DNA of 64,000 bases from a virus: the UHGV virus genome UHGV-0200554; one strand, written 5' to 3'. The position numbers and the translations under genes were made by a program. Positions within the stretch are counted from its first letter, which is position 1, and every line of letters begins with the position of its first letter. Positions 13,586-20,866 of this stretch are shown here, in pieces. Below the pieces are notes generated by a model, which had not been told where the DNA came from, did not search any database, and was given only the letters and a program-made list of their open reading frames with translations.

Positions 13586-14320
13586 ATGAAGCAAGGTGTA
13601 GTGTGGGCTTTATTCAATGGCTCCGATATTGCTGTCAAACCCTGGGCTGATGCAGGGTATTTGTGCTTCTGCTTCAATGCAGAAGGGGCAGATCACGGGA
13701 GCTATGCAGAGGTAGTAGAAGAACATCCCAACATTAAGTACATAGATTACTGGATTGACCCGTGGTTCCCACAAGAAACCTTGGGGATGTATCCTGCACC
13801 AGATTTCATCCTGTCGTTTCCACCATGTACCCACTTAGCGGTATCTGGAGCAGCACATTTCAAGAAAAAATTACAAAAAGATCCGTTGATTCAGGTCAAT
13901 GCTGTAAAAGATGCACGTATTGCAGAAACATTGGGTAACATGTATAATTGTCCGTGGCATGTGGAGAACCCTGTTGGGGTTATGTCTAATATGTGGCGTA
14001 AACCAGACTACAAGTTCCATCCGTCTGAGTATGGTGGCTATCTGCCGGAAGATGACCAGAACCCGTGGTTCCCTGACCTGATTAAGCCCAGAGATGCTTA
14101 TCCGAAGCTAACCTGTGGATGGTTTGGGAATGGTTTTGTTGTCCCTGAGAAACGACCTGTGCCGCAGATTTGTGATGTAAATGGGTATTCTTTCCAACAT
14201 ACCAAACTGGGAGGAAAATCTCCTCGTACCAAAATGATCAGAAGCCTGACACCTCGTGGTTGGGCATTAGCCGTGTTTGAAGCCAACGAACCCGTTGTAA
14301 GGAGCAAACTCAATGGTTGA
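13586..14320 (+). CDS. C5-cytosine methyltransferase-like protein (short, atypical)
   Basis: Motif I-like LFNGSD, motif IV-like SFPPCT (PC-T instead of PCQ), motif VI HVENPVG (ENV); start ATG 13586 with GGAGGG RBS. Confidence 0.45.
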   Translation: MKQGVVWALFNGSDIAVKPWADAGYLCFCFNAEGADHGSYAEVVEEHPNIKYIDYWIDPWFPQETLGMYPAPDFILSFPPCTHLAVSGAAHFKKKLQKDPLIQVNAVKDARIAETLGNMYNCPWHVENPVGVMSNMWRKPDYKFHPSEYGGYLPEDDQNPWFPDLIKPRDAYPKLTCGWFGNGFVVPEKRPVPQICDVNGYSFQHTKLGGKSPRTKMIRSLTPRGWALAVFEANEPVVRSKLNG

Positions 14321-14984
14321 CTGGAGCAAATATTTCACCTACAGTGACGGTAAACTGTTCTGGGCGTATACCGCAAAAGCCGGAAGAGGCAGGGTTATAC
14401 ATCACGCAGGCGAGGAGGCCACAGGTACAGACACAGATGGCTATAGGGTGATAAGTGTGTCAGGTGTTGGACGTGTTAGTAGGCATAGAATAATTTGGGA
14501 GATGCATTACGGGGAGATACCTGAAGGCCTTGTTGTGCGGCACAAGAACGACATAGCAGGCGATGATAGGATAGAGAACTTAGTCCTAGGAACACAGGGA
14601 GATAATGTACGAGACATGATCTACAGTGACAAATTGAACATTAACAATACCTCAGGGTGTCGAGGTGTATGCTACCATAGGGGTGTAAAAAGATGGATTG
14701 CATCTGCTGGAGACATATATTTAGGATGTTTTAAGACAAAAGAGGATGCAATTACATGCAGAAAGTTATGGGAGGAGGGAAAATTCGTCCCGCAAGAATT
14801 AGATGTTAGAAATACCAGCGGTGTAACAGGGGTGTTCTATGTGCCAAGCTCTGGAAGGTGGAGAGTTAGAGTACAAAGTGGCAAAAAGAGAAAGAGCTAT
14901 GGTAGTTACAACACTTTAGAAGAAGCAAGAGCTGTAAGGGACAGAGTGATGAAAGAGATTGAGGAGTCTAAAGATGGGGAATAA
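14313..14984 (+). CDS. HNH homing endonuclease with two AP2-type DNA-binding domains
   Basis: HNH_3-like N-terminus (GYRVISV...RHRIIWE...HKN...DNRIENL-like), two AP2-like repeats (GVCYHRGVKRWIA..., GVFYVPSSGRWRVRV...). Confidence 0.7.
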   Translation: MVDWSKYFTYSDGKLFWAYTAKAGRGRVIHHAGEEATGTDTDGYRVISVSGVGRVSRHRIIWEMHYGEIPEGLVVRHKNDIAGDDRIENLVLGTQGDNVRDMIYSDKLNINNTSGCRGVCYHRGVKRWIASAGDIYLGCFKTKEDAITCRKLWEEGKFVPQELDVRNTSGVTGVFYVPSSGRWRVRVQSGKKRKSYGSYNTLEEARAVRDRVMKEIEESKDGE

Positions 14985-17900
14985 GTTTATACCCTCTGCG
15001 TATAGTCGTTATGGGGAACCGAACCCAGTTGCAACAAGATACAAAAGCGGAGGCAGTATGGCACGAGACTATCGTGATGAAAAAGAGGTTGAAACTGTAG
15101 AGACTGTTTTAGAAAATACTAAAATTGTCCCTGTTCCACAACAAAATATCGGACTGACGGCTGCACAATATTTCGGTGTGCGATCAGCATTGTCCCAAGA
15201 AGATGGTGTGACAGTCGTTGCAACATATTTCCCATATTACAACCGCTACGGCAATCTATCTGGCTTTAAAAAGCGTGATTGGTCTAAGCCAAAAGAGCAG
15301 AAAGGGCACTGGTCTGTAGTAGGCATTGTTAAGGCCAACAGCCAGTTCTTCGGTCAGAAAATGGTTGGTGAAGGCTCAGACCATCGTAAAATCATTGTCT
15401 GCGAAGGTGAAGGCGATGTTATTGCTGCGTGGCAGACTGAATGGATGATGGTCAGGAAAATAGCTACAGACCCGTCATCAAATAAGAAAGCTAAAGCGTG
15501 GGCACAAAGCGTTCTTGACGGTATTAAAGCCGTGCAGGATGGTGGTTCTGCTAAAGGTTTTCCCACAATTAACGTGGTAGGGCTTAATTGTGGTTGTGCG
15601 AATGCCGTAGACGCTTTTGCCAACAACGAGAAGTTTATTCGTGGCTTTGATGAGATTGTCCTGGCCTTCGATAATGACGCTGCAAATGATGTTGAGAAGC
15701 TAAAACATGTCACCAAAGGTGTTGAAGCCACTCACAATGTTGCAGCTTTCCTGATGGCTGACAACGTTTTCCATGTGCAGTATCCGAGCGAGGTAAATGA
15801 TCCAGAGGGTTACAAAGATATCCGTGATTTGTTCCAGGCTAAAAAGTATGATCAAATTCACGATATGTTCAAAAACCCGATCAAATACGTGCCAGACGCT
15901 GTAGCAGGCCTGAATGATTTCTCAATTGAAGATTTACGTAAAAAATCCACCAATGGTGTTGACATTGGGGCAGAGTTCCCTAAACTCCAGAAAATGTTGA
16001 AAGGTTTGCATAAAGGCACACTGGTCATGTTGACTGGCCCTTCCGGCGGTGGTAAGACTACGGTAGCTAAGAAGATTGAGCACCAGATAGCTAAATACCT
16101 GATGGATCCTACGGTGGCTAAAGCTGATGACTACGACCCCGAAGACAGGTTGTGTATGATTCACCTGGAAGAGGACCCAGAAGAAGCCATCAACTCGCTG
16201 TATGCTAACCAGCTGGGGTATGATATCAAGAATTTCATGGAGGACCCAAGCAAGTATCTGACCGAGCAGGAACACTTTGAAATCCACAAAGCCTGGGTTG
16301 ATGCTGATAAAATCAGAGTATTCCGGCACTTCGGTTCAATACCTGTAAACGACCTGATCACCAAGCTGAAACAGATGGTGTGCTTGTATCATTGTCGTTA
16401 CATCGTACTGGATCATCTGTCAATGGTTATTTCTGGTTTGAATGTAAAAGATGAGCGTAAAGAGCTGGACCTTGCAATGACGCAGCTTGCAGCATTCTGT
16501 AAGCAATTCAATGTGTTCATTTTGGTGATTGCACACTTACGTCGTACAGAGATTATCCCACCGAAGGATAAAGAAGGTAGGGCTTTACCGTTCTGGTATC
16601 CTGTCCGTAAAGAAAACCTTCGTGGTTGTGTTTCTGCGGACACAGAGTTTTTAACCCCGCAGGGGTGGAAACGCATAGATAACTATGCAGAAGGGGATTT
16701 GGTTGCGCAGCACGATGAAAATGGCGTAATGACTTTCGTAACCCCGAAAGCCTACATCAATCTTCCTTGCGAAGAAATGTGGCATGTTTCCAACACTCAC
16801 GTTGTAGACATGTTGTTGAGCGATGAACATCGTGTTGTATATGTGAATGACAGAACGCCAGATGTTTTCCGTACGAAAACCATGTTGGAAGTTGTCTATG
16901 ACCACAACAACAAGCCTTCAGGTATGCGTGGGAAAATACCTGCTACGTTCCTCACAGGGTGCAATGGGACGCTGGGGTTGACTGATGACCAATTACGCCT
17001 ACAGGTTGCTGTAAATGCTGATGGGACAGTTCTTACTGAGTCAACAGGAAGAGTGGCTGTGAGAATCAAAAAAGATCGGAAAAAACAACGTCTCGAGATG
17101 CTGCTGGAGAAAACAAACACCACTTATAGGCGTCTTGATTTGCACGGGGTGCACGAAGGACGCACAGAGTACCAATTTAAAGCACCGTGTGGGTATAAAG
17201 GTGTGACTGGGGAATGGTTTAATCTCAAACAACACGAGTTGGAGATTATCTGTGATGAGGTTATGTATTGGGACGGAGATTCTGTGAACAAAAACAGGGT
17301 GTCCACCATTAACAAACTTGAAGCGGACTTCTTACAGTTTGCCTACAGCGCCTGTGGACATAGAACATCTTTATCCATGAAGGAGAACAACAGTGGCTTT
17401 GGCGGTAGTTACAACTGTAAACCTTTGTACGAGGTAAATGTTTGCAATACTAAGTACATGCATATACGCAAAGGTAGTAATAACAAACCCTCTATTGAAC
17501 GTGTACCTTCCCCAGATGGACGTAAGTATTGCTTTACGTTACCGTCGGGTATGTGGGTGGCGCGCCGCAATGGGCATATTTTTATCACAGGAAATTCGGG
17601 GAGTATGGAACAACTCAGTTGGGTTGTCATAGGGGTAGAAGCAGAAGAGATGCCTGACAGGTCCCGTGGGCGTGTCCGTTTAGTTAGCCTAAAAAACAGG
17701 CCAGCTAAAACCTTGGGTATCGCTGATGTGCTGATTATGAACCCTGAGACTGGTAAATTCTCCGATGCCAGTGACTGGGTGTGGGATAAAGAGACAGGTT
17801 TCTTCCTGAACAAAGATGGGGATATTGTCTGGAGGCCACAAGATATGTTCGACAATGAAGAACATGTTGTTGTGGAAACTCCTGAAGGTAAGGTTACCGC

Positions 17901-18015
17901 CGATGTGAAACCTCAACCAAAATCTGTTGACGCAGAAGGGGAAGAAGATGATGGAGTGGATGATCAGAGTGTAATCCAACAGGAGTTCCCTGAGGATGAA
18001 GATTGTCCGTTCTGA
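14974..18015 (+). CDS. bifunctional DNA primase-helicase (T7 gp4-like), intein-containing
   Basis: TOPRIM motifs (IIVCEGEGD, VLAFDNDAAND), Walker A GPSGGGKTT, helicase motif split by intein; acidic C-terminus ending DEDCPF; ATG 14974 with GAGGAG RBS. Confidence 0.8.
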   Translation: MGNKFIPSAYSRYGEPNPVATRYKSGGSMARDYRDEKEVETVETVLENTKIVPVPQQNIGLTAAQYFGVRSALSQEDGVTVVATYFPYYNRYGNLSGFKKRDWSKPKEQKGHWSVVGIVKANSQFFGQKMVGEGSDHRKIIVCEGEGDVIAAWQTEWMMVRKIATDPSSNKKAKAWAQSVLDGIKAVQDGGSAKGFPTINVVGLNCGCANAVDAFANNEKFIRGFDEIVLAFDNDAANDVEKLKHVTKGVEATHNVAAFLMADNVFHVQYPSEVNDPEGYKDIRDLFQAKKYDQIHDMFKNPIKYVPDAVAGLNDFSIEDLRKKSTNGVDIGAEFPKLQKMLKGLHKGTLVMLTGPSGGGKTTVAKKIEHQIAKYLMDPTVAKADDYDPEDRLCMIHLEEDPEEAINSLYANQLGYDIKNFMEDPSKYLTEQEHFEIHKAWVDADKIRVFRHFGSIPVNDLITKLKQMVCLYHCRYIVLDHLSMVISGLNVKDERKELDLAMTQLAAFCKQFNVFILVIAHLRRTEIIPPKDKEGRALPFWYPVRKENLRGCVSADTEFLTPQGWKRIDNYAEGDLVAQHDENGVMTFVTPKAYINLPCEEMWHVSNTHVVDMLLSDEHRVVYVNDRTPDVFRTKTMLEVVYDHNNKPSGMRGKIPATFLTGCNGTLGLTDDQLRLQVAVNADGTVLTESTGRVAVRIKKDRKKQRLEMLLEKTNTTYRRLDLHGVHEGRTEYQFKAPCGYKGVTGEWFNLKQHELEIICDEVMYWDGDSVNKNRVSTINKLEADFLQFAYSACGHRTSLSMKENNSGFGGSYNCKPLYEVNVCNTKYMHIRKGSNNKPSIERVPSPDGRKYCFTLPSGMWVARRNGHIFITGNSGSMEQLSWVVIGVEAEEMPDRSRGRVRLVSLKNRPAKTLGIADVLIMNPETGKFSDASDWVWDKETGFFLNKDGDIVWRPQDMFDNEEHVVVETPEGKVTADVKPQPKSVDAEGEEDDGVDDQSVIQQEFPEDEDCPF
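16627..17595 (+). other. intein (about 323 aa) inserted in helicase motif of primase-helicase
   Basis: Starts with Cys after ENLRG, ends ...ITGN followed by Ser; removal restores LRG-SGSMEQLS matching the T7 gp4 DLRGSGALRQLS motif; possible degenerate LAGLIDADG-like segments inside. Confidence 0.7.
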
Positions 18016-18079: not shown

Positions 18080-20866
18080 ATGGCGCTTTTTTGTTATGAC
18101 TTTGAGGCCTCAGGCTTGCTCGATGAGCCTGAACTGTACTACCATTGTGGACTGTTTAAACAGCACCACAAAAACAATTTCATGCTATTCCTGCCGCTAA
18201 ACGACAGGACCCATTACACAGAGGAAGATGTAGAAACAGCAAAACAATTTGCTCTCAATAAGCAGACAATTTACAAAAACTGTCAGGTGCGGGTTGCCGA
18301 CTTCGGGTATCTGGAAGAGTGGTTGACAGGACATTCTGATTGGTCACCAACAGCTCTTGCCTGCCACAACTGCTTTGATTATGACCAGATTTTGATGGAA
18401 AAACTGTCAGGCATTCATTTCGACCTGTTCGAAGATAAAGATTGCATGGGAACCATCAACGGTCACAGGGTTAACCTGTTCGATACTCTGCCGATGAGTC
18501 GTATACTGTGGCCTGATCGCCCGTTACCGAAGGGTTGCCCAGAATCAGTATTCAACCCGGTAACGAAGAAAAGTCAAGCTGTAGGTCCACACGGGTTGAT
18601 GGCCTGGGGCTATGCACTTGGCAACCAGAAAGTTAAGATTGATGACTGGCGCAATCTTCCACTCTGGAAATACGTAGACCGTGTGTGGGAAGACGTTATC
18701 ATCCAGGAATTGCTCTGGGACGAACTGATCGCCGAGTCCAAAGGGACATTCTACGGTAAATCTGACATGCAAAACTTTATGTATGATCCAGACAAAGAGA
18801 AACCTGGTGGATTCAAACAGATCACTTGGAAGTATGCTCTGCGTCGTGGGATGCTTCAGCACTTCCTGATGGGCTTACAGGCAAGACAAGGTGTTTATTT
18901 TGATATTGATGGGGCGATAGCTTTACGTCAGAAGTGTGACGACATGATGAAAGAGATCGCTGATCGTGTGGAACCGCAGCTGCCACTGAAAGAAATTTCA
19001 GAGGCCCAGAAGCCTAAGTTCCCACAGAAACCGTTTAATACGGATGGTAGTATCTCTTCTCACGGCTACAGCTGGTTGAAGAACAAACTGGGGTATCCAG
19101 TTAATGAAGCAGCTTTCGACTTCAAACCTGCACCTAAACGGGCTTTCAACAAAGATGGTAGTGTTAGTGCCACAGGTGCTAAATGGTGTGTAGAAAGAGG
19201 TTGCACCGATCCTGAAAAACAGGCAGACTTCCTGAGGGCAGCACGGTCAGAGGAAGCACCTAAACCTCTGCCGGATGACCTGATGCAACAGGCAATTAAG
19301 GATTTGCAGGATAAGAAAATGCCTGATTGCATGGTGCCTATGAGAATGAATAACCAGATGGATATCAAGCGTTATCTAATCTCTGTAGGCTGGCAACCAA
19401 CAATGTGGAGAACGAAAGATTTAACCCGTGATTACCACAAAAAACAGTTGCCGGATGCTGAAGTTGATGCTAAAGTAAGGGAGTATATGGATGAACTGGA
19501 AACATCTGAGTATCGTGCCCTGATCATCCGTGAACTGAACAAGGATGCACGATTCAAAATTTCAGAAGCGAAGTTTCTGAGTCGTAAGAACTCCCCGAGG
19601 GTTGAGCAGGAGGTGTTCGCTAAGTTCCGGCGTAAAGCCAGAGGACTACCAACATCCCCGCAGCTGAAAGATAGCTTCGGGCATTTGTGTCCTAACCTGG
19701 CAAGACTGCAAGGAGAGATGGCAAAAGATATTGTGTTCTGGCTGTCATTGCGTAACCGTAGGTCAGTACTTGACCCAATCAAGGAAGATAAAGTTGATAC
19801 CGGATTGTTGAATCATCCGAGATTGCAGATCGATCACCGCTTACCCGCAGAAAGCTCTGGTTTGACTGCTACCGGACGACAGAAGCATAAAATATGTGCC
19901 AACCAGCCTAAACCTTCACCAAAAGTTGTATTGGGTAAGGAGATGCGTAGCCTCTGGAAACCTGCTCCTGGTAAGTATCAGTTGGGGGTGGATGGTTCCA
20001 ACCTTGAACAGCTGATAGGTGCATGGGGTGCTTACGATTTCGACAACGGGGCGTATTACAGGATTATAAGCGAAGGGGACGCACATGCTTTGAACGCCAA
20101 AGCCTACTCTAAAGTTGTGGGCAGGGAAGTTTCCCGTGGTGATGGTAAACCAATCACCTATGGTGTGATGTATGGCGCTCAAAAGGATAAAGTAGCGGAT
20201 ATGCTCGACGTTGTGCCGGAGGTTGGTCAGCAGGTAATTGATGCATTCTGGGATACCAACTTCGGCCTGAAAGGTCGTAAAGAGGCACTTGAGAAATTCT
20301 GGGAGGCAACAGGTAAGAAATTTATCTATGCTTTCGATGGTCATGCCATCTGGACACGCTCTAAACACTCCTTGCTGAATGCATATCAGCAGAATGGTGG
20401 CGCTTCATTGTGTGACTTGGTAGGCTTACTGGTTCATCGCAACCTAGTGACCTTGAAAATAGATAATAAAACTTGGTATGACCTAGGTGTCAGAAGAATA
20501 ATTTATTACCATGACGAATTTCAGTATGAAATTCCAGATAATGGCTTATTTAAAACAGTTTATGAGTTTGATACTCTGGAAGAACTGGAAAAATTCAAAG
20601 CAGAGGAGGAAGCAAAAGGTCGTATCTTTACTGGCAACAAATACAAAAAAGCCCGTAAAGATGAAAATGGTGAAGAAGTAGTTGACAGCAACGGTAAAAC
20701 CGTGTATGATCCAATCATAAACGAAAACGGCAAATGCCAGTTGATTCATTGCAAGGTTGGTGAAATGGTTGTTAAATGCTTCCACCAGGCATCTCGCATC
20801 ATGAAAGTACCTTTCCAGATCACAGGTGAAGGTCTTGTGGGATACTCGTGGGGCGAATGCCACTGA
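18080..20866 (+). CDS. DNA polymerase, family A, with 3'-5' exonuclease domain
   Basis: Exo I YDFEASG at N-terminus; motif B-like KPITYGVMYGAQ; motif C YHDEFQYE; 928 aa. Confidence 0.85.
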   Translation: MALFCYDFEASGLLDEPELYYHCGLFKQHHKNNFMLFLPLNDRTHYTEEDVETAKQFALNKQTIYKNCQVRVADFGYLEEWLTGHSDWSPTALACHNCFDYDQILMEKLSGIHFDLFEDKDCMGTINGHRVNLFDTLPMSRILWPDRPLPKGCPESVFNPVTKKSQAVGPHGLMAWGYALGNQKVKIDDWRNLPLWKYVDRVWEDVIIQELLWDELIAESKGTFYGKSDMQNFMYDPDKEKPGGFKQITWKYALRRGMLQHFLMGLQARQGVYFDIDGAIALRQKCDDMMKEIADRVEPQLPLKEISEAQKPKFPQKPFNTDGSISSHGYSWLKNKLGYPVNEAAFDFKPAPKRAFNKDGSVSATGAKWCVERGCTDPEKQADFLRAARSEEAPKPLPDDLMQQAIKDLQDKKMPDCMVPMRMNNQMDIKRYLISVGWQPTMWRTKDLTRDYHKKQLPDAEVDAKVREYMDELETSEYRALIIRELNKDARFKISEAKFLSRKNSPRVEQEVFAKFRRKARGLPTSPQLKDSFGHLCPNLARLQGEMAKDIVFWLSLRNRRSVLDPIKEDKVDTGLLNHPRLQIDHRLPAESSGLTATGRQKHKICANQPKPSPKVVLGKEMRSLWKPAPGKYQLGVDGSNLEQLIGAWGAYDFDNGAYYRIISEGDAHALNAKAYSKVVGREVSRGDGKPITYGVMYGAQKDKVADMLDVVPEVGQQVIDAFWDTNFGLKGRKEALEKFWEATGKKFIYAFDGHAIWTRSKHSLLNAYQQNGGASLCDLVGLLVHRNLVTLKIDNKTWYDLGVRRIIYYHDEFQYEIPDNGLFKTVYEFDTLEELEKFKAEEEAKGRIFTGNKYKKARKDENGEEVVDSNGKTVYDPIINENGKCQLIHCKVGEMVVKCFHQASRIMKVPFQITGEGLVGYSWGECH

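Follow-up and report, generated by a model that had tools for sequence, protein, structure and literature searches.

We report here that positions 16627..17595 of the window, the whole 64,000-nucleotide stretch of virus genome UHGV-0200554 that was analysed, encode a two-domain intein in which a Hint splicing domain is interrupted by a LAGLIDADG homing endonuclease. Taking sequence, structure model and characterised relatives together, this is very likely a functional, mobile and bifunctional intein in motif H4 of a primase-helicase. Within a very large phage family of unusual catalytic make-up it is an ordinary member. An earlier note on this DNA had already proposed an intein at this place; new over that first reading are a class-3-like pairing of an invariant Cys at F:4 with Thr at G:5, together with a Gly-Asn end that runs through the family and a presence/absence polymorphism documenting mobility. 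All features described below lie on the + strand.

The host gene, delimited by its open reading frame, Pfam matches and homologue alignments, spans 14974..18015 and encodes a precursor of 1013 aa (114.4 kDa). The protein is an SF4, T7 gp4-like primase-helicase of an uncultured, E. coli-type phage; it contains a TOPRIM motif CEGEGD (15400-15417) and a Walker A motif GPSGGGKT (16036-16059), the Pfam scan matched DnaB_C and AAA_25, and the precursor was aligned to the T7 gp4A, Gotham, Avunavirus and KIL4 proteins. The gene probably starts at the ATG at 14974 (MGNKF) rather than at the TTG at 14959 given by the ORF finder, since the Gotham protein begins with MGSKF and an identical 1013-aa protein is found in a public collection.

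The earlier note placed a 323-aa insertion, from Cys to Asn, after ENLRG and before Ser, and translation of 16597-17640 and of the whole open reading frame fixes these boundaries exactly to the base: ...YPVRKENLRG / CVSADTEF...(323 aa)...NGHIFITGN / SGSMEQLSWVV, the slashes marking the junctions. Cys1 (16627-16629), Asn323 (17593-17595) and the Ser+1 nucleophile, which is the first C-extein residue (17596-17598), lie in a single frame without a stop, and the ORF is unbroken across both junctions. The N-extein (14974..16626) comprises 551 aa ending in ...FWYPVRKENLRG, and the C-extein (17596..18015) comprises 139 aa plus the stop and starts with SGSMEQLSWVV. Excision of 969 nt restores ENLRG-SGSMEQLS, as had been claimed, and this aligns with ITDLRG(488)/S(489)GALRQLS of T7 gp4A. 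The insertion site is helicase motif H4, between the residues aligned to T7 Gly488 and Ser489, and the primase-helicase minus the intein is computed at 690 aa and 77.6 kDa. The suggested comparison with intein-free homologues gave the same picture, the Gotham protein (75% identity) and proteins P0175-P0178 (91-93% identity, 689-690 aa) being uninterrupted at the site; the Vequintavirus Gotham protein reads ...VRKENLRG/SAGLEQLSW, precisely without the insertion. The global DNA alignment to Gotham broke down 3' of the insertion and was left out there. A foreign base composition of the intein was ruled out, its GC content (45.0%) being close to that of the exteins (44.5% and 47.4%).

That the insertion is a permanent, non-excised domain (a domesticated or dead intein), or a group I or group II intron with an in-frame ORF removed as RNA, seems to us hardly credible. 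The KIL4 record does join its CDS around a homologous insertion, as if removal took place at the nucleotide level, and no intein is called by standard domain scans; however, the splicing residues are all intact and invariant, the reading frame continues through both junctions, the insertion breaks a motif (DLRGSG) that is contiguous in every aligned intein-free SF4 helicase, and splicing is known for relatives of the same signature (PMC5050341, PMC7891396). An Rfam scan of 16300-17900 gave no match to an intron or other structured RNA (best E 0.96), and the intron reading was rejected on this ground.

As an intein the element measures 36.7 kDa from Cys1 to Asn323 and shows Cys in block A, S-x-x-H in block B, a beta-hairpin of blocks F and G that closes with Asn, and Ser+1 after it. 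The Hint N-terminal lobe (16627..16938, aa 1-104), with model beta strands at pLDDT >90 and a profile match to 6zgq, contains block A (CVSADTEF, beginning with Cys1) and block B (S65-D-E-H68-R69-V70, 16819-16836); in the family alignment C1, E7, W14 and H68 are invariant. The LAGLIDADG homing-endonuclease domain follows at 16939..17472 (about aa 105-282, borders approximate), with helix 1 DDQLRLQVAVNADG (16984-17025, aa 120-133, ...VAVNADG, containing Asp132), a basic stretch KKDRKK (17068-17085) and helix 2 QHELEIICDEVMYWDG (17230-17277, aa 202-217, ...VMYWDG, containing Asp216); D132, K149, R151, K152, W215 and D216 show no or almost no variation in the family. The Hint C-terminal lobe (17473..17595, aa 283-323; model beta strands 304-309, 314-319 and 322-327) holds block F (K-Y-C302-F-T-L-P-S-G, 17524-17550, in which Cys302 at 17530-17532 occupies F:4) and block G (F-I-T321-G322-N323, 17581-17595), which ends the intein.

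The AlphaFold model of the intein reached a pLDDT of 89.6 and a pTM of 0.88. In Foldseek it matched TliVMA, PhoVMA, PI-SceI and PI-PfuI at E 2e-13 to 8e-8, I-DmoI at E 7.6e-7 (about 1e-6; target TM 0.58) and, over the Hint part, the AceL NrdHF intein 6zgq with a target-normalised TM of 0.73. The degenerate LAGLIDADG-like stretches remarked on in the earlier note are two long helices in this model (125-137 and 207-221), and the domain superposes on I-DmoI, PI-SceI and PI-PfuI. The LAGLIDADG class 1 inteins PI-SceI, TliVMA and PI-PfuI are the best overall fold matches and share the two-domain architecture, Cys1 and the terminal Asn at about 10-12% identity; unlike the window intein they include a further DNA-recognition region, which adds 100-130 aa to their length, and where the window intein has Cys and Gly, theirs are Asp F:4 (generalised from the family, PMC4031507) and His as the penultimate residue. 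A family-profile search of the PDB returned 6zgq as the sole significant sequence match (E 1e-7 to 2e-8, aligned over the Hint N-terminal lobe), with weak matches to the Spl DnaX intein and a Hedgehog C-domain; HMMER gave no alignment of the Hint C-terminal lobe to 6zgq. The Hint domain for which an HMM search had been proposed is thus significant by family profile or by structure but is missed by single-sequence Pfam and NCBIfam scans of the insertion, whose best match was Hint_2 at E 0.13. The Pfam scan of the window copy gave no LAGLIDADG match at E<=1, and LAGLIDADG_3 was matched at 2.6e-4 in one of nine family members scanned. A match to ETR1, the only one from a single-sequence PDB search, was judged spurious.

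A word-indexed protein search with the intein alone found two relatives, and a profile of phage-derived homologues was required to find more. With it the family comprises at least 1,845 clusters (50% identity) at E<=1e-30; 7,351 matches were obtained at E<=1e-10, the best 150 of which were retrieved. A profile of nine phage homologues run against the six-frame translation of the window matched the intein locus at E 5e-134, far better than chance would give, and matched that locus alone, which rules out a second family copy in the window. Related inteins, 30-40% identical over the full length, occur in PhoH, RtcB, RecD-like, TOPRIM and phosphoesterase proteins, always with boundaries of the type C...N/S, T or C. 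The earlier note had named, as what would overturn it, a finding that the 323 aa are a conserved domain of the host protein; this fails, since the same element recurs in these unrelated proteins. Insertion sites in the family are mostly P-loops, and H4 is rare (2 of the 162 copies examined).

Across these 162 copies Cys1, the block B His, the Cys at F:4 and the terminal Asn are each present without exception, as is the Y-C-F of block F, and block G has Thr at G:5 in 153 and Gly at G:6 in 154. The Gly-Asn end, which had been noticed in place of the usual His-Asn, is therefore real but no oddity of this copy; it is a family trait and not decay. The Bethlehem RDF and AceL NrdHF inteins, treated below, carry Gly at this position too, and both splice. 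The histidines of F:13 and G:6 are absent in the family, B:12 is V, I, M or L (Val70 here) with Trp never dominant, and the +1 residue is Cys in 87 copies.

In the splicing route that we propose, a 114-kDa precursor would be translated that is presumably no working helicase, since motif H4 is split by the intein. A thioester would form at Gly551-Cys1 through Cys1, assisted by Ser65 and His68 of block B, followed by transfer of the N-extein to Ser+1; cyclisation of Asn323 would then free the intein, and an O-N shift would give the 77.6-kDa helicase with an intact ...DLRG-SGSMEQLS. We infer this pathway from residue conservation and by comparison with characterised relatives. With Cys302 at F:4 and Gly322 at G:6, the assisting residues typical of class 1 (Asp F:4 and His G:6) are absent. 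Both are common in class 1 inteins but not obligatory; most class 1 inteins have Asp at F:4, the position that in class 3 supplies the branch-point nucleophile. The N-terminal nucleophile of class 1 inteins is present as Cys1, whose use in catalysis is predicted from sequence. Class 1 inteins with Cys at F:4 have been accepted (PMC3196547, PMC4031507), as has one without the penultimate His (PMC5050341). In the AceL NrdHF intein the block B Arg69 contacts the C-scissile carbonyl and partly replaces the penultimate His (PMC7891396); its counterpart here is Arg69, but Arg is found at B:11 in only 56 of the 162 family copies, so that it cannot be a general stand-in for the missing His.

The same residues can be read as class-3-type or hybrid chemistry, in which Cys302, polarised by His68 and Thr321, attacks the N-scissile bond or takes the acyl group from Cys1, and a branched thioester at block F precedes the transfer to Ser+1; AceL-type class 3 inteins would then have descended, through loss of Cys1, from the state that the family represents. 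We regard this as improbable. The invariance of Cys F:4 and the prevalence of Thr G:5 speak for it, as does the fact that the only significant PDB match of the family profile is a class 3 intein, AceL NrdHF, and a phage origin has been proposed for class 3 inteins (PMC3196547, PMC4031507). AceL has the corresponding residues S65/H68/R69, C124, P128-G129, T144-G145-N146 and Ser+1, and so shares with the window intein an S-x-x-H-R block B (Ser B:7, His B:10, Arg B:11), a non-Trp residue at B:12, a block F in which Cys F:4 (Cys-x3-Pro...Gly) is followed by a Pro...Gly kink, the Thr-Gly-Asn end, Ser+1, and the lack of both the F:13 and G:6 histidines (PMC7891396); the comparison of blocks F and G is based on the published residue numbers and not on an alignment. 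It splices within minutes, and its G145H variant is dead (Hoffmann et al. 2020, PMC7891396).

Against this stands Cys1, which is just as invariant as Cys F:4, arguing for its use. Class 3 as defined lacks Cys, Ser or Thr at position 1 and has Trp at B:12, and neither character is found in this intein; of the WCT triplet, Cys302 (F:4) and Thr321 (G:5) are present and B:12 is Val70, although AceL, a proven class 3 intein, also does without the Trp and has Met (PMC7891396). Furthermore, class 3 inteins nearly always have Ser or Thr at +1 (PMC2807308), whereas Cys is the +1 residue in 87 of the 162 copies examined. Class 1 inteins with Cys F:4 are known and polyphyletic (PMC3196547), F:4 is described as 'Asp, followed by Cys' across inteins generally (PMC4031507), and the Bethlehem RDF intein, of the same signature, has been assigned to class 1, apparently on sequence alone (PMC5050341). 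AceL itself starts with Ala where the window intein starts with Cys1, occurs naturally as two halves with a free-standing GIY-YIG gene between them where the window intein is contiguous with an in-frame LAGLIDADG domain, and resides in a ribonucleotide reductase and not in a primase-helicase. It is likewise doubtful that the family is a living transition from class 1 to class 3, in which Cys F:4 either is the primary nucleophile or must carry a second thioester. If it were, thousands of phage inteins now assigned to class 1 would use a hybrid mechanism, and the disputed origin of class 3, divergent or convergent (PMC3196547 versus PMC7664689), would be directly testable on natural sequences. 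The constellation of Cys1, Cys F:4 and Thr-Gly-Asn is intermediate between class 1 of the textbooks and AceL, an atypical class 3 intein, and offers a cheap and well-defined target for mutagenesis.

The window intein has near known counterparts among actinobacteriophage inteins, namely that of the mycobacteriophage Bethlehem RDF (a metallophosphoesterase; 317 aa), a distant member of the family, and the related ones of mycobacteriophage TOPRIM-primases such as Turj99 gp53 (312 aa), against 323 aa here. Both are co-linear with the window intein over the full length, endonuclease domain included, and have the same signature, Cys1, Cys F:4 and a terminal Thr-Gly-Asn with Ser or Cys after it; in Bethlehem this reads C1, VWC at block F, and L-T-G-N/S. 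Identity to the window intein is 27% for Turj99 (E 2e-22) and only about 20% for Bethlehem. They occupy other host proteins, at HEGNHD/C and EGE/C and not at LRG/C, and the window phage is an enterobacterial-type myovirus. The Bethlehem intein splices to completion and more slowly as the G316H variant, and toxicity of its endonuclease in E. coli has been reported (Kelley et al. 2016, PMC5050341). Fast inteins of this His-less type are of interest as ligation tools.

Evidence for mobility comes from the alleles of close relatives. The empty sibling allele L013 has the site CCTTCGTGGG/AGCGGAAGTCAGGAAC, and the DNA flanking the site in the window is 92-97% identical to it on both sides. Other relatives are filled differently: in P0179 the extein is 91% identical and the intein at the same site only 50%, in P0019 the extein is 53% and the intein 82% identical, and P0180, a 94%-identical sibling allele, carries a family intein in Walker A instead of H4. 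Right at the junction, 7 of 15 nt distinguish the filled from the empty allele, while the rest of the gene is about 93-97% identical; such replacement near the junction is as expected of co-conversion, and the empty allele, differing there, may represent a resistant site rather than a substrate. Between the window copy and P0019, dN is 0.139 for the endonuclease, 0.136-0.18 for the splicing domain and 0.45-0.51 for the exteins. Judged by dN, the endonuclease domain is constrained as strongly as the splicing domain. In both intein and extein dS is saturated, so that the higher identity of the intein cannot be dated and is by itself no proof of recent transfer.

We propose that the released endonuclease would cut intein-free helicase alleles of co-infecting relatives, and that break repair would copy the intein into the cut allele; such homing would explain the patchy presence of the intein among near-identical phages. 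The presence/absence polymorphism, the discordance between intein and extein and the replacement tract at the junction point indirectly to the predicted site-specific cleavage. The splicing domain could instead be active and the endonuclease non-functional, so that in this lineage the intein has reached the end of the homing cycle and persists as a fixed passenger inherited vertically. This is possible though unlikely: the intein is present in all 19 full-length members of the protein's 90% cluster, the LAGLIDADG helices are degenerate and escape Pfam in the window copy, and the GC content of the intein resembles that of the host gene, but the Asp that closes each helix is conserved across the family, as is the basic patch, the endonuclease and Hint domains have equal dN, alleles that are empty, filled with a different intein or filled at another site are found side by side at 91-94% extein identity, and the sequence near the junction has been replaced in the manner of co-conversion.

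A single phage lineage holds the same essential gene in four states at 91-94% identity, namely an empty site, two very different H4 inteins and a Walker A intein. The lineage offers a compact natural system for the homing cycle, for site switching between junctions of the G/SG type and for the question of whether splicing gates the replication helicase. In cellular DnaB, inteins lie at sites a and c in motif H4 and at site b in the P-loop (Novikova et al. 2016, PMC4760082); the superfamily (SF4) and the two hot spots are the same as for the window intein (H4) and that of P0180 (Walker A), a likeness at the level of motifs; DnaB sites a and c lie two residues apart in one short conserved segment. 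Those inteins reside in DnaB whereas the window intein resides in a phage gp4-type primase-helicase fusion, and the P-loop inteins of mycobacterial DnaB belong to class 3 and have the WCT triplet, which the window intein lacks.

Since Pfam and NCBIfam are blind to this intein, the family of at least 1,845 clusters is largely invisible to routine pipelines. Where such inteins are overlooked, host proteins seem 300 aa too long or get split. The public record of the protein identical to the one encoded here carries the name 'DNA directed DNA polymerase'.

The insertion under study lies in an ORF on the + strand which runs from a TTG at 14959 in the mechanical ORF list to 18015; the real start of the gene is almost certainly the ATG at 14974, because MGNKF... 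agrees with MGSKF... in the Vequintavirus Gotham orthologue and a public protein of 1013 aa is identical letter for letter. Translation of the junctions (slashes mark insertion points) gives ...YPVRKENLRG/CVSADTEFLTPQGW...RRNGHIFITGN/SGSMEQLSWVV, with 323 stop-free codons in a frame common to both flanks, and therefore places the boundaries at exactly 16627-17595 (+). The earlier note had described a 323-aa insertion beginning with Cys after ENLRG and ending in FITGN before a Ser, and the translation bears out all these details. The spliced product (323 aa removed) was aligned with T7 gp4A, the Gotham protein and the spliced KIL4 (a Pseudomonas phage) and Avunavirus proteins, which identifies the host protein as a T7 gp4-like primase-helicase with a TOPRIM motif CEGEGD at 15400-15417 (+) and a Walker A motif GPSGGGKT at 16036-16059 (+). 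The Pfam matches DnaB_C and AAA_25 cover residues about 335-530 and end before the insertion. The residues on either side of the junction align with T7 Gly488 and Ser489 (ITDLRG/SGALRQLS), in agreement with the claim that the rejoined flanks match the T7 gp4 motif; the T7 numbering was validated by the position of the KCR522F arginine finger. The segment split by the intein is helicase motif H4. Cellular DnaB has three known intein sites, two of them in this motif at a distance of two residues and the third in the P-loop (PMC4760082).

The possibility that the 323 aa form a conserved domain of the host protein was weighed against its homologues. The Gotham protein, 75% identical, reads ...VRKENLRG/SAGLEQLSW without interruption. 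The spliced sequence retrieved the proteins P0175-P0178, which are 689-690 aa long and 91-93% identical (171 member sequences together). The DNA of one of these, sibling contig L013, shows 92-97% identity on either side of the site when compared with the window, and the 969 nt are cleanly absent from it. These comparisons argue firmly for an insertion and not for a host-protein domain. An intron was also considered and rejected, there being no structured-RNA match in the insertion region.

Single-sequence scans of the insertion against Pfam, NCBIfam and the PDB gave no recognition, so that the HMM search for a Hint (splicing) domain suggested in the earlier note fails on the single sequence, but succeeds with a family profile: a nine-member profile retrieved one significant solved protein, the AceL NrdHF intein 6zgq (E 1e-7; 2e-8 with a Hint-only profile). 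When 50,697 phage genomes were searched by tblastn with the 323 aa, 441 records matched, and in 289 the match spanned 80% of the query or more. The matches lie in primase-helicases, PhoH-like ATPases, RtcB ligases, RecD/ExoV-like helicases and AAA ATPases, and furthermore in ribonucleotide reductase, DNA polymerase and Ser/Thr phosphatases; one match, from a mycobacteriophage, bears the existing annotation 'intein-containing topoisomerase primase'. All the homologous blocks examined start with Cys and end in (T/S)-G-N, after which comes a Ser, Thr or Cys. An AlphaFold model built from 13 sequences (pLDDT 89.6, pTM 0.88) has as its top Foldseek matches in the PDB endonuclease-containing inteins (TliVMA/PhoVMA, 2e-13 to 7e-12; PI-SceI, 1e-11; PI-PfuI, 8e-8), with the monomeric LAGLIDADG enzyme I-DmoI matching the central domain (about 1e-6) and 6zgq the splicing domain (target TM 0.73). 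In this model the LAGLIDADG-like stretches noticed previously (aa 120-133 and 202-217) form the pair of long helices at the centre, both ending in a conserved Asp-Gly (D132, D216). Thus the interpretation of the insertion as an intein is right and the finding is real; no second copy of the family was found elsewhere in the window.

The family profile matched 13,555 of 1.84 billion cluster representatives at E<=1e-3 (7,351 at <=1e-10 and 1,845 at <=1e-30). In 162 full-length intein copies extracted from the top proteins of this search, Cys at position 1, His at B:10, Cys at F:4 and Asn at G:7 are invariant; G:5 is Thr in 153 (Ser in 7), B:12 is aliphatic, mostly Val, B:11 is Arg in only 56, and the +1 residue is Cys in 87 and Ser in 65. 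Since G:6 is Gly in 154/162, the ending in GN instead of the usual HN, which the note had pointed out, is a family character. Among characterised relatives, the Bethlehem RDF intein (317 aa), which we located in the phosphoesterase gene of AY500153, carries the same signature (C...VWCLRVPNG...HLTGN/S); it splices completely, precursor builds up in its G316H mutant, and its endonuclease is toxic in E. coli (PMC5050341). The AceL NrdHF intein, which has S65, H68, R69, M70, C124, P128-G129, T144-G145-N146 and Ser+1, splices in minutes, loses splicing upon G145H and has Arg69 on the C-terminal scissile carbonyl (PMC7891396). Its equivalents in the window's intein are S65, H68, R69, V70, C302, P306...G308, T321-G322-N323 and Ser+1. 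The one difference, decisive for classification, is at position 1, which is Ala in AceL NrdHF, a proven class 3 intein, but always Cys in the window's family. The intein is filed by definition as class 1, because Cys at F:4 is a recognised occurrence among class 1 inteins, those that have it being polyphyletic (PMC3196547). The invariant Cys302 could be an assisting residue or a second acyl station; a role as redox partner of Cys1 is speculation. Our searches found no literature on the family as such or on the signature Cys1, Cys F:4 and TGN.

Most copies (126/162) interrupt Walker A P-loops (G/[STC]GK[ST]), followed by RtcB DIG/CGM (9), TOPRIM EGE/CD (4), positions after a Walker B DE (2) and other sites (19). 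The SF4 H4 site LRG/S was found in just two copies (P0019 and P0147), and the window's site is therefore a minority target. Many sites share a Gly/(Ser or Cys)-Gly junction (PSG/SGK, DIG/CGM, VG/CGI, LRG/SGS), a common type that may ease site switching. Several metagenomic primase-helicases (P0013, P0017, P0141, P0152) contain two or three family copies per protein, one in TOPRIM EGE/CD, the site used in mycobacteriophage Turj99, and another in the P-loop. The KIL4 primase/helicase (L002 1930-4731) has its Walker A motif interrupted by a family intein of 40% identity (ASG/C...ITGN/TGKST); the CDS is annotated as a two-piece join though the ORF is continuous, and the neighbouring DNA polymerase CDS is likewise a join.

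The primase-helicase exists in four allelic states at 91-94% extein identity, which speaks for mobility of the intein in this lineage. The gene is empty in P0175-P0178; it carries the window's intein in a cluster of 19 (that of P0160 is 92% identical); in P0179, a 91%-identical helicase (L016 1501-4548), a different intein, only 50% identical, occupies the same H4 site; and P0180, 94% identical, has a family intein in Walker A (TGPSG/C...VTGN/SGKTT, corresponding to 16036-16059 in the window) and none in H4. The P0180 intein is 31% identical to the window's, and therefore one intein family strikes the same gene at two sites. Sliding DNA identity between the window and L016 is 91-98% in the extein and 37-69% in the intein, which together with the protein identity implies independent invasion or intein replacement in P0179. 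The opposite pattern is seen with P0019, from pig-gut and other metagenomes, whose extein is 53% identical to the window's but whose intein, located at the same site, reaches 82% (DNA of L014, 44-67% and 66-81%, respectively). For this pair both the Hint and the endonuclease domain have a dN of 0.14, compared with 0.45-0.51 for the exteins; dS has reached saturation throughout, making intein transfer between both lineages undatable. The empty junction reads CGTGGG/AGCGGAAGTCAG and both filled alleles CGTGGT/TCGGG(G/C)AGTATG, with 7 differences in 15 nt including a Ser codon-family switch and a Gln-to-Met change, which is compatible with co-conversion of the markers that flank the site as well as with a diverged target.

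The window belongs to a divergent relative of the Vequintavirinae (rV5-like) phages, with DNA identity above 80% in short stretches only. The exact protein is deposited in GenBank as DAM57099.1 under the title 'MAG TPA: DNA directed DNA polymerase [Caudoviricetes sp.]' with the intein unmentioned; this name is wrong, as the protein is the intein-containing primase-helicase and the family A polymerase proper is encoded by the ORF that follows (18080-20866). LAGLIDADG-containing inteins have been reported in helicases of related phages (Certrevirus CB7, PMC7344957), and phage inteins have been surveyed in actinobacteriophages (PMC5050341; bioRxiv 10.1101/2025.01.02.630785). The intein, which had not been annotated, represents a kind of element already known and sits at a hot spot of known type; its interest is moderate, lying in the class-3-like constellation combined with Cys1 throughout the family, the four-state polymorphism of one essential gene and the very large size of an intein family overlooked by routine annotation.

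A free-standing HNH_3 + AP2 homing-endonuclease ORF at 14313-14984 (+), between the Dcm-like methylase and primase-helicase genes, overlaps the start of the latter and is absent from 93%-identical sibling contigs, whose 94-97% match to the window ends at 14316. At its 5' end (~360 nt, 14974-~15340) the helicase gene is instead 87-97% identical to Vequintavirus Gotham/EmilHeitz. Together these features suggest another homing event in the primase-helicase gene, independent of the first and accompanied by a co-conversion tract. L013 (3631-4365) has a different HNH_3/AP2 endonuclease gene between helicase and polymerase, with 35% identity to that of the window; at this place the window has a spacer of just 64 nt. 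Finally, a metagenomic protein of 330 aa (P0002) is a stand-alone homologue of the entire intein that lacks Cys1 (GFSGNTEF...), the Y-C-F of block F and the T-G-N end; either decay of a copy or derivation of a free-standing endonuclease from an intein may explain it.
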